DNA of 63,052 bases from an uncultured Methanosarcinales archaeon (GTDB lineage Archaea > Nanobdellota > Nanobdellia > Woesearchaeales > GW2011-AR9). Below are positions 9,075-13,324 of the stretch, one piece after another. Position 1 is the stretch's first letter. Each line of letters opens with the position of its first letter. The stretch covers positions 1 to 63,052 of the forward strand of contig CAZRCV010000001.1 in assembly GCA_964598745.1 (NCBI GenBank). Reading direction: 5' to 3'. The position numbers and the translations under genes are program-made. Below the pieces are notes generated by a model, which saw only the letters and a list, made by a program, of their open reading frames with translations, searched no databases and was not told where the DNA came from.

Positions 9075-9544
9075 ACTAAACCACCCATTGCTTTTTTATC
9101 TTTTGATTTCTTTAAGGCCAGCTTAGCGATAGATTTCTTAGATGTCTTCTCAATTATAGGTTCTGCCAATTTATTTTTTTCCAACTTCCCTTTTTCAAAT
9201 ATTTTTATAATTACGTGGTGTTTGGTCTTGCTAAGCGGCCTGGTTCTGGCTACTAAAACTTCTTGACCAATCTGAGCGTTAACTGCAGGCGGATTGTGCA
9301 CCCTTAACCTAGACCTGTTGATAGCATACCGCTCATATTTAGGAATGAACTTCGATTCAAACCACTCAATGGTCGCAGATTTGTTGGTATCTTTCTTAAT
9401 TACCTTGCCTTTTAGCAATTCTTTTTTTACCACCAAACTGCCAGTAAATGGGCAATTTTTATCATAGTTAGAACTATCATAAGCTCCCTGCGGAGCCGGT
9501 ATCCCCAACACTGTTTCCTTAACTTTGTATGTTTGTGGTTTCAC
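9071..9544 (-). CDS. rps17: 30S ribosomal protein uS17 with a Lys-rich C-terminal tail
   Basis: CPFTGSLVVK..KGKVIKKDTNKSATIEW..YERYAINRSRLRVHNPP..VLVARTRPLSKTK core. Confidence 0.85.
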   Translation of the reverse strand: MKPQTYKVKETVLGIPAPQGAYDSSNYDKNCPFTGSLVVKKELLKGKVIKKDTNKSATIEWFESKFIPKYERYAINRSRLRVHNPPAVNAQIGQEVLVARTRPLSKTKHHVIIKIFEKGKLEKNKLAEPIIEKTSKKSIAKLALKKSKDKKAMGGLV

Positions 9545-9798
9545 TTTCCTTTCAACCTGTCTTCTGGCTTTTTGATTAAATCTACTCCCTTTATTATCTT
9601 ATCATGGTGTTCCAACCTTAAAACTAAACCTGATTTTAATAGGATTGCCTCCTTCCCTTTAGTGAGAACCACCAAAGTAGCTTTAGTTTCATTTATCACT
9701 TTCCCTTGAAGACCAATCAAGCTTCTGTTGGTAGCATTTACAATGATGATTCTTTTGCCGATTAATTCCCCAGGAAAAATTTCCAAGTTAGATTTCAT
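9541..9798 (-). CDS. rnp1: RNase P protein component 1 (Rpp29/Pop4 family)
   Basis: ELIGKRIIIVNATNRSLIGLQGKVINETKATLVV..PEDRLK matches the Rpp29 Sm-like core. Canonical slot between SUI1/uL29 and uS17. Confidence 0.75.
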   Translation of the reverse strand: MKSNLEIFPGELIGKRIIIVNATNRSLIGLQGKVINETKATLVVLTKGKEAILLKSGLVLRLEHHDKIIKGVDLIKKPEDRLKGK

Positions 9799-9837: not shown

Positions 9838-10140
9838 CTACTGGATTTCAATGGTCTCTTCAGGAAAACCTAACTCCGTTAACGCCTGTTTCACGCGAGA
9901 TTTATGGTCTCCTTGCAGTTCGATATTTCCGCTTTTAGCCGTTCCACCACAGGCAAACTTCGATTTCAATTTTTTAAAGATTTCTTCGATGTTAGCCTCA
10001 CGCTTTATACCATTGATAACCGTATACATTTTTCCAAACTTTCTTTTCTCAATTTTAACGGTTATTTTTTGCTGCTCCCGCGCGATCGTCTCACAAACGC
10101 ACAAGTCTAAAGGTAATCCACATTGATTACATACTGCCAT
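9838..10140 (-). CDS. Translation initiation factor aIF1 (SUI1 family)
   Basis: N-terminal CxxC..CxC knuckle, then ITVKIEKRKFGKMYTVINGI and ACGGTAK..IELQGDH, the SUI1 core. Conserved slot in the archaeal cluster. Confidence 0.85.
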   Translation of the reverse strand: MAVCNQCGLPLDLCVCETIAREQQKITVKIEKRKFGKMYTVINGIKREANIEEIFKKLKSKFACGGTAKSGNIELQGDHKSRVKQALTELGFPEETIEIQ

Positions 10141-10343: not shown

Positions 10344-11237
10344 TTAATTTACTTTAATATCTTTATTATCGAAGGAATTGTTAATAATATTATTAGGTGA
10401 TCTTACTTTAGGCTCATCAGTTAATGAACTAATTTCTTCCTCGTTCTTTTTTTGTGAAGAGGGAAGGGGTGAATTTTCCTCAACAACAGAAAGGGGATTA
10501 GATTTGTCTACCTTAACTTTGTTTCTTGAACCAGCTTTTCGTCCGGAAACTTTGCGTTGAGGTTTAGCCTCAGTGCCGCTTAACGGCTCGGTAACATGGT
10601 CCTTGGAAGGAACGACGGCCTCTTGGGTTATGGTTATCGGTTGATCCAAAATTGTTACCGTGTCAGGCAACACTAAATCAGGTGGCATGATTGATACTTT
10701 TATGCCTATTATCCCGCTCTTAAGCAAAGCACTAGCTTTAGCACTCCTTACACCATAAATAGCAATATCTCCGCATTTTTTTAAATATCCTTGGTAAAAC
10801 CGCCAACTCTTAGCCCTAGCGCCAGGAATTTTTCCGGAAATTACTAATTCTATTCCCAGAGCTCCAGAATTAAGAACATTTTCCATAATTTTGTGGCCAA
10901 TGCTTTTGAACCTAGCCGAACCAAACTTTTCTAGCGAGCTGGCAATTTTTTCAGCTACAATAGCCGCATCAAGAAAAACGTTTTTAACTTCTACAATTTC
11001 AATCTGCGGGTTTTCCAAATTAAAAATTTTCTTTAATTTTTGAGTTAAATCCCTGATGTTGGAACCTTTTGAACCAACAATTAAACTGGGTCGATTAGCA
11101 TGAATGATGACTTTCTCTCCCAAAGGTATTTTTTTAAGAGTGACTTGAGAAATACCGGCTCCTTTAAGGGTGCGTTCTACTTCTTTTCGAATATAATACT
11201 CTTTAGTTTTTTGTTGAATAAATTCTCGTTCAATCAT
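10344..11237 (-). CDS. rps3: 30S ribosomal protein uS3 with a ~90-aa low-complexity C-terminal tail
   Basis: KH-domain segment RPSLIVGSKGSNIRDL and GIELVISGKIPGARAKSWRFYQGYLKKCGD core. Confidence 0.9.
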   Translation of the reverse strand: MIEREFIQQKTKEYYIRKEVERTLKGAGISQVTLKKIPLGEKVIIHANRPSLIVGSKGSNIRDLTQKLKKIFNLENPQIEIVEVKNVFLDAAIVAEKIASSLEKFGSARFKSIGHKIMENVLNSGALGIELVISGKIPGARAKSWRFYQGYLKKCGDIAIYGVRSAKASALLKSGIIGIKVSIMPPDLVLPDTVTILDQPITITQEAVVPSKDHVTEPLSGTEAKPQRKVSGRKAGSRNKVKVDKSNPLSVVEENSPLPSSQKKNEEEISSLTDEPKVRSPNNIINNSFDNKDIKVN

Positions 11238-11806
11238 TTTGAATAGTCTCCAGCGTGATTACTAGACATAGGTTTATGATCATTAACTTTGACCGGGTTT
11301 GTTTTAGCTTTTTCAGAGGAATGAGATTCGTTTCTGTTAGCTGTTTTGGAGCTAGCTTTAGATATTTTTGTTGAATCTTTACCCGCAATTTCACTTACTT
11401 CAATCTCCAAGTTCGTTCGCTTGGTAGCATGGCGAAACCTGCCACCGGTAAAGGGTATTGAAGCTAAATTAGCCATAAGTTTAGTAATTTTTAACCGTGC
11501 TGTGTTCAAGCCTTGGGCTTGAGCATTAGCCTCAACAGAGTGAATTAATTTTAAAAATTGCCGGGCGGCTTTTTCTGGATACCTTCCAGCAGCCATGGTT
11601 CTTTTATGAGCCACATTCTGTTTATATGTTTTGAAAGGAATAGCCCTTCGCAAGGTTACAACATTCTCTAAGATTTTCCTGGCTGCGGCTGTGCTTTTAT
11701 AGCGAATAGCTTTGCTTATTTCTACACTATGCTTAAATGACATGGTTACATCTAGCGATTTGGCCTTAGCCAAATGTCCTTTTTCAACTATAGGTGTAAT
11801 TTTCAT
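11234..11806 (-). CDS. rpl22: 50S ribosomal protein uL22 with a Ser/Lys-rich C-terminal tail
   Basis: SFKHSVEISKAIR..AARKILENV..IPFK..HKR core. Synteny uS19-uL22-uS3. Confidence 0.85.
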   Translation of the reverse strand: MKITPIVEKGHLAKAKSLDVTMSFKHSVEISKAIRYKSTAAARKILENVVTLRRAIPFKTYKQNVAHKRTMAAGRYPEKAARQFLKLIHSVEANAQAQGLNTARLKITKLMANLASIPFTGGRFRHATKRTNLEIEVSEIAGKDSTKISKASSKTANRNESHSSEKAKTNPVKVNDHKPMSSNHAGDYSK

Positions 11807-11808
11807 TT

Positions 11809-12189
11809 TTATCTAGCCGATACAGCTTTACTGGATCTGGTGGCGCCAATACCCGCGGCACTGTGTGTTACAACTTTCCTAGTTAAAGCAAATTCTCCTA
11901 AATAATGGCCTAACATCTCTGAAGTGATTTCCACGCGCTGAAACTCCTTGCCATTGTAAACACCGAGAGTCATCCCTATCATTTTAGGAATAATCACCAT
12001 GTCCCGGCAATGAGTTTTGATATTCTTATCCCCCGCTTCAACCCGTTTTAACAATCTTTTCTGGGCTTCCGTAAAGCCGCGTTTGATCGAACGCCTCATG
12101 CGTGCTGAAACCAGATTAGCAAATATATCCAAGCTCAAAGTTTTAACTTCTTCTTCGCTTCTTCCCTGCCATTTAAATTCTTTTGCCAT
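11809..12189 (-). CDS. rps19: 30S ribosomal protein uS19
   Basis: THCRDMVIIPKMIGMTLGVYNGKEF..ITSEMLGHYLGEFALTRK motif. Confidence 0.9.
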   Translation of the reverse strand: MAKEFKWQGRSEEEVKTLSLDIFANLVSARMRRSIKRGFTEAQKRLLKRVEAGDKNIKTHCRDMVIIPKMIGMTLGVYNGKEFQRVEITSEMLGHYLGEFALTRKVVTHSAAGIGATRSSKAVSAR

Positions 12190-12195
12190 TTTATT

Positions 12196-12621
12196 TTACC
12201 TAAATTTAATTTCACTTCGTCTTGAGTTTGTTTCATCACCATCACTAACTGAAGAAGCACTCACGCCCGGTGTTGGGTGGAATAATTTATTTTTGAAATA
12301 AGCCACACCATTACTAGTGCCAACAAGGCCTCGCCGACAGGAAAAAGTTAAATAAACAGTTCCTACGGGAACCTCATTACCCTGACTATCTCTACTTATT
12401 AAAGTGTCTATTCTCTGGATATTACCATTATACCTTAATCTAAGGTTACTATCAAAATAGCTATCACAAGTATAATTACTGGAAATACCTTTAGCTACTT
12501 GCACTGGATAAAACATTGAGCTAAGATTATTTTCAGTATCCCTTCTTCTAGCTTCCAGCACTCCAGCATATGCCCACACCGTAGCGGCTGCAACAAATCC
12601 TAATTTATGTATCAATGACAT
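12196..12621 (-). CDS. Orphan membrane-anchored/secreted protein (141 aa) embedded between uL2 and uS19
   Basis: The ATG (MSLIHKLGFVAAATVWAYAGVL..) lies 1 nt after the uL2 TAA, and the stop lies 6 nt before the uS19 ATG. There is one N-terminal hydrophobic helix, and I recognise no family. The longer 12654 start in the ORF track would overlap uL2. Confidence 0.6.
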   Translation of the reverse strand: MSLIHKLGFVAAATVWAYAGVLEARRRDTENNLSSMFYPVQVAKGISSNYTCDSYFDSNLRLRYNGNIQRIDTLISRDSQGNEVPVGTVYLTFSCRRGLVGTSNGVAYFKNKLFHPTPGVSASSVSDGDETNSRRSEIKFR

Positions 12622-12622
12622 T

Positions 12623-13324
12623 TTATTTCTTCCTGCCTGTCCTGCGCGGCGCAATTTTCCCTACTTTACGCCCTGGCGGCGCGCTTCTCGGTGATAACGT
12701 TGGCCTACCTTTGATATGCGAACATGAGCCACCAAAGGGGTGGTTAACTGCATTCATGGAAATACCGCACACCCTTGGATAAACTTTATTGCGCGCTTTC
12801 ATTTTATAGTATCTAGCTCCGGCTTTCAAGAAAGGTTTGTCCTTTCGGCCAGAGCCAGCCAAAATTCCCACCGAAGCTCGGCAATCAGGCAATAATAATT
12901 TTTCCTTTCGTGAAGGCAACAATACTCTGATGGCGGTTTCCGACTTAGCAATGACACGAGCCGAAGAACCGGAAGTTCTAACTAATTTTCCTCCATCTCC
13001 TGGCCGCAACTCAATATTGTGAATTAAGGTTCCTTCCGGAATATGTTTTAAAGATAAAACGTTTCCTGGCCTGATTTCTGCTTCAGAACCAACATTAATT
13101 TGATCACCAACAGCAATACCTTCCGGAGCAACAGTTCTGGCTTTAATTCCACTATTAAAATAAGCTACCTCCATTAAGGGAGCAGTATGCGCTGGACAAT
13201 GAATAAGATCGACTATCAAACCGGCTTGGGCGGGATGTTTAGATGGCCCTTTAAATCTAAATTTGGGAGTCTTATAAGTAAGCGAACCGCGCCCTCGTCT
13301 TTGTTGTATTAGTTGCTTACCCAT
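12623..13324 (-). CDS. rpl2: 50S ribosomal protein uL2
   Basis: GNVLSLKHIPEGTLIHNIELRPGDGGKLVRTSG and MNAVNHPFGGS motifs. Confidence 0.95.
   Translation of the reverse strand: MGKQLIQQRRGRGSLTYKTPKFRFKGPSKHPAQAGLIVDLIHCPAHTAPLMEVAYFNSGIKARTVAPEGIAVGDQINVGSEAEIRPGNVLSLKHIPEGTLIHNIELRPGDGGKLVRTSGSSARVIAKSETAIRVLLPSRKEKLLLPDCRASVGILAGSGRKDKPFLKAGARYYKMKARNKVYPRVCGISMNAVNHPFGGSCSHIKGRPTLSPRSAPPGRKVGKIAPRRTGRKK

Follow-up and report, generated by a model that had tools for sequence, protein, structure and literature searches.

Operons of bacteria are known to change by the insertion of ORFans beside native genes, whose promoter the newcomers use (Price, Arkin and Alm 2006, PLoS Genet, PMC1480536). 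The same authors warn against inferring the function of an ORFan from its operon address (PMC1480536). Non-ribosomal genes are also embedded, in the same orientation, in the S10-spc cluster of Archaea, namely those for SUI1/aIF1, the RNase P protein Rpp29 and SecY, all of which belong to known families and are kept across Archaea. A third point of comparison is provided by phage 'morons', unrelated extra genes lying between genes that are neighbours in relatives and showing a patchy presence. Morons typically carry their own promoter and terminator.

The case described here, a 141-codon open reading frame (ORF) between uL2 and uS19 in the ribosomal-protein operon of a Woesearchaeales (DPANN) archaeon, belongs to the first of these kinds, the ORFans in native operons. 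As in the cases of PMC1480536, the ORF is without homologues beyond very close relatives, lies on the same strand as its neighbours at operon spacing, and is flanked by two genes which are adjacent in relatives without it, pointing to insertion and not rearrangement. The adjacency of the two genes in relatives is most simply explained by one insertion event, and the ORF would likewise depend on the native promoter for its expression. The ORF differs from the ORFans of that study in that it is located in the middle of a core ribosomal-protein operon rather than at an operon end, with stop-to-start distances of 1 and 6 nt. In addition, it resides in a DPANN archaeon, whose lineage has gathered many unrelated inserts in this operon. 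This lineage-wide cassette traffic is more interesting than the membership of the ORF in a known kind. Similarly to SUI1, Rpp29 and SecY, the ORF is embedded and co-oriented in the S10-spc cluster, but it occurs in a single species and has no place in any family. Similarly to a moron, it is an extra gene between neighbours of relatives with patchy presence, but it leaves no room for a promoter or terminator and has a cellular operon as host; no PHROG, phage or IMG/VR match pointing to a phage origin was found.

Our preferred explanation, to which we assign a probability of about 0.6, is that the ORF represents an accessory ('passenger') gene of recent origin, specific to one species. Such a gene would be expressed by read-through and translational coupling, and its product would combine a signal-like N-terminus with a domain of ~120 residues containing two cysteines.

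The reading frame between uL2 and uS19

The window, i.e. the whole stretch of DNA that was analysed, is 63,052 nt long. The ORF is encoded on the (-) strand, as is the compact archaeal ribosomal-protein operon around it. The features of the two junctions, followed by two of the embedded non-ribosomal genes, are:

12623..13324, (-): uL2 gene (233 aa), Pfam Ribosomal_L2_C 4e-39, with its TAA stop at 12623-12625
12622..12622, (-): single nucleotide separating the uL2 stop from the ORF start (TAA-A-ATG), read from the sequence
12196..12621, (-): orphan ORF encoding protein P0001, 141 codons plus TAA, an intact frame beginning MSLIHKLGFVAAATVWAYAGVLEARRRD...
12198..12201, (-): AGGT, resembling a Shine-Dalgarno motif, 8 nt upstream of the uS19 ATG and overlapping the last codon and the stop of the ORF
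12190..12195, (-): 6 nt separating the ORF stop from the uS19 ATG, read from the sequence
11809..12189, (-): uS19 gene (126 aa), Pfam Ribosomal_S19 3e-30, with an intact N-terminus (MAKEFKWQG)
9838..10140, (-): SUI1, identified within the window by Pfam
9541..9798, (-): Rpp29, identified within the window by Pfam

The TAA of the ORF occupies 12196-12198 and the ATG of uS19 12187-12189. The sequence-only reading had described a 141-aa ORF between uL2 and uS19 with an ATG 1 nt past the uL2 TAA and a stop 6 nt before the uS19 ATG, and the locus is exactly so arranged. The C-terminus of uL2 is intact (...APRRTGRKK*) and agrees with the C-termini of relatives, and uS19 shares 75-78% identity with its same-genus orthologues. 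Pfam identified uL3, uL4, uL23, uL2, uS19, uL22, uS3, uL29, SUI1, Rpp29, uS17 and uL14 as members of the operon; downstream of this Pfam-checked part, up to SecY, consecutive ORFs are spaced by at most 59 nt. The ORF is the sole non-canonical gene of the cluster, the members from uL3 to uL14 being otherwise standard. Both uL22 (190 aa, window 11234-11806) and uS3 (297 aa, window 10344-11237) have long low-complexity C-terminal tails.

Two circumstances might lead one to doubt that the segment is a gene: the genome is metagenome-assembled, and the protein has no homologues. The segment would then be an assembly chimera, or else a non-coding RNA or regulatory spacer that is open by chance. We regard this as hardly credible. 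Logan contig L033 (run SRR12113430, 952 nt), which comes from a second assembly, covers the 3' end of uL2, the ORF and the 5' end of uS19 with 4 differences, and because this independent contig reproduces both junctions, the arrangement is not an assembly error. An open run of the length of the ORF appeared in 1 of 20,000 dinucleotide-preserving shuffles of the 433-nt gap (~5e-5), and the analytic estimate for a chance open frame of this length is about 1e-5. Furthermore, Rfam returned nothing for the region at E<=1, and the GC content of the ORF shows no anomaly. The strain copy differs from the ORF by one synonymous and one non-synonymous change, and the uS19 fragment likewise by one of each; two substitutions in the ORF give no power to test selection or dN/dS.

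According to the preferred explanation, the uL2-uS19 junction of this Woesearchaeales (DPANN) archaeon was ancestrally tight and would later have received a passenger gene. Spacings of 1 and 6 nt are too short to hold a separate promoter, so the ORF is presumably transcribed within the operon, from the promoter of the uL3...uS17 ribosomal-protein operon. A scan for sigma-70 promoters and terminators gave nothing useful; the model does not apply to an archaeon. Ribosomes ending on uL2 may restart 1 nt later at the ATG of the ORF, the TAA-A-ATG spacer being a putative site of termination-reinitiation coupling. Translation of uS19 would in turn restart 6 nt past the ORF stop, helped by AGGT, which we take to serve the uS19 start as a Shine-Dalgarno-like motif. 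Insert-free relatives have GGAG or GGT motifs in their uL2-uS19 spacer.

Homology searches and properties of the encoded protein

P0001 is an orphan. A word-indexed search of 5.8 billion proteins retrieved as the sole match P0002, a 99% identical strain copy (G119D). No match was found in Pfam (even at E<=1), NCBIfam, PHROGs, PADLOC or PDB sequences, the PADLOC search covering anti-phage defence families. Likewise, none was found in GTDB genome contigs, JGI metagenome contigs, IMG/VR, GenBank phages or PLSDB plasmids. Nor did 60 related genomes, two of them of the same genus, yield a match; a 17-bit hit in one of the 60 (G052, E=0.005) was dismissed as noise. Within the 1.0-Mb genome itself, blastn and tblastx detected neither a paralogue nor source DNA for the ORF in any frame, and derivation from a duplicated uS19, uL2 or other DNA of the genome was rejected. 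A transposable element, MITE or IS was also discarded, as the segment is not bounded by terminal inverted repeats and is present only once in the genome (blastn, tblastx).

An exhaustive HMMER search of 1.84 billion representatives returned the strain copy and four repeat proteins, P0003-P0006 (E 3e-24 to 5e-6). The latter were rejected as homologues. Each consists of 7-17 tandem repeats, every one of which scores at most 15 bits, and the significance of the whole-protein match arises because scores are summed over these repeats. The four proteins fall into three unrelated groups (SCAN-like helical, PF16403 Ig-like and Big_1/invasin repeats), which align to different 30-40-residue pieces of P0001. 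Short motifs of P0001 do resemble bacterial Ig-like surface domains (Big_1 / Invasin_D3; Bact_surface_Ig-like PF16403), namely SRDSQGNEVPVGTVYLTFS compared to ARDANGNQEPVGGSTVVFS and FHPTPGVSASSVSDGDETN compared to FDPTTGVTASDTQDGDLTN, but P0001 differs from Big_1 and PF16403 proteins in having no single-domain profile match, either in Pfam at E<=1 or above 15 bits per repeat. At most, these matches hint that the C-terminal part of P0001 is beta-rich and surface-protein-like; they are a lead, not family membership.

The main features of the protein map as follows:

12556..12621, (-): signal-peptide-like or anchor segment, codons 1-22, defined by hydropathy and manual application of the von Heijne -3/-1 rule
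12466..12468, (-): codon of Cys52, from the translation
12337..12339, (-): codon of Cys95, from the translation

Both the two cysteines and the N-terminal stretch LGFVAAATVWAYAGVL noted in the sequence-only reading are present in the translation. By manual rules, the N-terminus is laid out in order and in three parts, like a signal peptide: a positively charged MSLIHK is followed by a hydrophobic core (LGFVAAATVW), a possible cleavage site (AYA-G, cut between A and G) and then EARRRD. The protein has a single N-terminal hydrophobic stretch (residues 7-22) with a Kyte-Doolittle mean of 1.63 over 15 residues and 1.35 over 19. Being short and of moderate hydrophobicity (1.35 over 19), this stretch favours a cleavable signal over a full transmembrane helix. 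An uncleaved N-out/C-in anchor fits equally well with the RRR at +5 to +7, just past the hydrophobic segment. Of the membrane-anchor helix claimed earlier, the one hydrophobic stretch thus stands, while its hydropathy is closer to a signal-peptide core than to a full transmembrane helix. Crude rules assign a signal-like N-terminus to 3% of the spurious ORFs in the same genome and to 6% of its other ORFs. Since spurious ORFs have them too, such an N-terminus is weak evidence for a real gene and tells more about the destination of the product, in this case presumably the membrane or the cell exterior, to which the signal-like N-terminus, possibly cleaved at AYA-G, would send this small protein.

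Compared to the proteome, P0001 is low in Lys, Glu, Ile and Leu and high in Ser, Arg, Asn, Gly and Val; Lys makes up 3.5% of its residues against a proteome mean of 7.6%. The portion past the N-terminus would form a domain of ~120 residues with two Cys, rich in Ser, Arg, Asn, Gly and Val and poor in Lys and Glu. This domain probably acts at the cell surface, not at the ribosome. AlphaFold2 run on the single sequence without an alignment gave no confident fold (mean pLDDT 36).

Coding potential was scored with a frame-specific fourth-order Markov model trained on the 438 long ORFs of the genome. The ORF reaches 0.106 bits per codon; with this score it exceeds 96% of spurious ORFs nested in real genes, falls within the lowest 17% of the other 100-200-aa ORFs of the same genome and compares with 0.16-0.28 bits per codon for ribosomal-protein genes. 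Its coding score is thus only intermediate. Together with the orphan status, which holds even inside the genus, and the lack of a confident fold, such a score would also suit a functionless translated 'bridge' ORF, consisting of foreign or scrambled DNA whose frame is open either because a premature stop, if distant from the start of uS19, would uncouple uS19 translation or because it is too young to have decayed. This is the main rival of the preferred explanation, and we consider it unlikely. The uS19 gene has its own AGGT at normal distance and may therefore not depend on coupling. The codon usage of the ORF is nearer to that of real genes than in 96% of spurious ORFs, and the ordered, signal-like layout of the N-terminus also argues against a mere bridge. 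The remaining evidence on this point comes from the related genomes.

Junctions of the ribosomal-protein operon in related genomes

To place the ORF among its relatives, we collected 30 + 71 loci of related genomes, corresponding to 91 non-redundant genomes, and measured the uL2-uS19 spacer:

spacer of at most 60 nt: 75 of 91 genomes
spacer of 61-200 nt: 9 of 91 genomes
spacer of more than 300 nt: 7 of 91 genomes

The median spacer is 17 nt. In the two same-genus genomes compared, SMAG_U8137 and RIFCSPHIGHO2_02_FULL_39_16, it is 49 and 100 nt. As the spacers of relatives are short, the tight uL2-uS19 junction is ancestral and the 432-nt segment is an insertion. A recent, tolerated insertion was one of the two alternatives considered in the sequence-only reading, and it agrees with the fact that none of the other genomes searched has the ORF, not even those of the genus's two other species, as well as with relatives' spacers being mostly 1-60 nt. 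The same reading had taken the junction to be universally tight, which it is not: 7 of the 91 related genomes have inserts of more than 300 nt. Moreover, a survey of Archaea distinguishes uL3-uL4-uL23-uL2 and uS19...uL15 as two separate universal core clusters (PMC10833476), so that the uL2-uS19 boundary, where the two cores meet, is less inviolable than had been assumed.

The inserts themselves are diverse. Unrelated ORFs of 116-294 aa occupy the uL2-uS19 junction in 7 of the 91 genomes, the window included. Neighbouring junctions hold inserts as well, in 6 of 71 cases for uL4-uL23, 10 of 73 for uL23-uL2 and 2 of 68 for uS19-uL22. The uL22-uS3 junction was excluded from these counts, because low-complexity C-terminal tails inflate apparent gaps in tblastn-based surveys. 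Within the genus of the window, three species have three different orphans in three different junctions:

window species: 141 aa, in uL2-uS19
G001: L034:1962-2267, 101 aa, lipoprotein-like with a lipobox-like LAALASC, in uS19-uL22
G002: L035:1580-1999, 139 aa, in uL23-uL2

In addition, G015, which represents another genus of the family, has a 116-aa ORF with four Cys in the uL2-uS19 junction, which also starts at TAA-A-ATG. This ORF lies at 1108-1458 of L011 (G015:C40) in uS19-forward orientation and begins MAKKQTKLVDTLPHCTYL...; its first residues, MAK, copy the start of uS19 (MAKEF). Kinship of P0001 with the G015 ORF, with the 241-294-aa cassette family described below or with the same-genus orphans was considered and rejected on the basis of all-against-all BLASTP and genome searches. 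The motif (E/D)DLDxLxxGD of the G002 ORF recurs in small uL23-uL2 ORFs of L040, L051, L060, L066 and L076. Literature searches turned up no paper on insertions into the ribosomal-protein operons of DPANN archaea or into the uL2-uS19 junction.

Judging from these comparisons, the ORF is best read as one case of a habit of the lineage, in which unrelated, fast-turnover ORFs come to lie in junctions of the ribosomal-protein operon. Such turnover would be shared by the bridge ORF discussed above, and some inserts do appear to be decaying: L056 has a visibly decaying insert with a split C-terminal module, and G015 retains, about 100 nt upstream of uL2, a weak, stop-interrupted homologue of the G002 uL23-uL2 ORF (E=1.2e-4). 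On the other hand, relatives tolerate untranslated uL2-uS19 spacers of 88-176 nt, an observation that speaks against a need for an open frame at this position.

The same comparisons bear on the other alternative of the sequence-only reading, a lineage-specific ribosome- or translocon-associated factor whose operon position would link its amount to that of the ribosomal proteins. Distances of 1 and 6 nt to uL2 and uS19 imply co-expression with these genes, and a membrane anchor could put the product near SecY, whose gene belongs to the cluster as well. Yet the ORF is not conserved in the lineage: none of the 60 relatives has it, the two other species of its genus included, and apart from the strain copy no homologue exists elsewhere among 5.8 + 1.84 billion proteins. 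Relatives fill the same slot, and neighbouring ones, with unrelated ORFs, and P0001 differs in composition from the ribosomal proteins, which are Lys-rich in this genome (K 3.5% in P0001 vs the proteome mean of 7.6%). Orphans in native operons have, furthermore, often wrongly been given the function of the operon (Price et al., PMC1480536). This alternative is therefore very improbable. For annotation, it follows that the ORF is not to be called a ribosomal or translocon protein by its address, but a hypothetical, probably exported, species-specific protein.

A direct repeat at the two ends of the segment might bear on how the passenger gene arrived:

12616..12628, (-): copy 1 of a 13-nt direct repeat, AAATAAAATGTCA, spanning the ORF start
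12184..12196, (-): copy 2, AAATAAAATGGCA, spanning the uS19 start

The two copies (AAATAAAATG[T/G]CA) are identical at 12 of 13 bases and spaced by 432 nt, i.e. 144 codons, so that the ORF and uS19 are in the same frame. The repeat may be an insertion footprint or just a common A-rich start context, and we treat it as a lead only. Its reading as a target-site duplication is weakened by a control with 19 inserts, in which only the ORF and L034 show exact identity over 10 nt spanning the start codon and in which TAAAATG start contexts, rich in A, are the norm.

A cassette family shared among junctions

In six of the related genomes the uL2-uS19 junction is occupied by an ORF of 241-294 aa. Five of these ORFs form one family (METLQTS..RTVEPIVLD..SGKRPYIWTP..GRARGVR), and the sixth (L040) has a distinct N-terminal domain, only its C-terminal module being common with the family. 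In different genomes, members of this cassette family were found at four junctions:

uL2-uS19: L050:2705-3547, L052, L054, L056, L060
uL23-uL2: L038, L052
uL4-uL23: L040, L046
uL6-eL32: L114:10001-10765

Three paralogues of the family are present within one operon of GCA_038045005.1, and C-terminal modules have been swapped among members. In the 5.8 billion proteins the family comprises 11 clusters, and those with a named source all come from Nanoarchaeota or Nanoarchaeia MAGs. It has no match in Pfam, PHROG, NCBIfam or PADLOC, and its AlphaFold2 model, obtained from aligned sequences (mean pLDDT 59), matched nothing in the PDB at E<=0.001. One member, P0017, has a J-domain-like HPD motif at its N-terminus.

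The ribosomal-protein operon is held to be the most stable gene array of prokaryotes and serves as a block of phylogenetic markers; in this DPANN family it is a recurrent landing site for fast-evolving orphans, and a single cassette family fills up to three junctions of one operon. If the passengers are expressed at the level of ribosomal proteins, they would rank near the top in abundance among the lineage-specific proteins made by these tiny symbionts, which would make them natural candidates for host-interaction factors. Passengers so expressed would also offer a tractable system for the study of gene birth or capture. A bolder version of the preferred explanation, which we put forward tentatively and consider doubtful as a whole, is that junctions of the Woesearchaeales ribosomal-protein superoperon act as a general expression slot in which small genes are gained, moved, duplicated, recombined and lost, inserts starting 0-4 nt past the upstream stop. 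The product of the ORF would then be a surface protein that an episymbiont has only recently captured, possibly of de novo origin, and that it makes in parallel with its ribosomes; the 13-nt repeat would be the footprint of the insertion mechanism.

One sub-clade has a further conserved sequence in the same spacer, a non-coding element of ~95 nt (..GGAGGGAAGTNTGNTC..GTGACTAAGC..GCGCATGTCGCCCTAATGATCAAACTTTTAGAAGTTTGTG) located directly 5' of a uS19 that starts with GTG:

L045:2706-2873
L047:2706-2824
L050:3548-3655
L054:2891-3015
L060:3459-3575

The element occurs with or without an upstream cassette, and the ancestral spacer with the old ATG (TAAGGAGATAACAATCAAAAATG) is kept just upstream of it. 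It may represent an RNA leader or an insertion scar.
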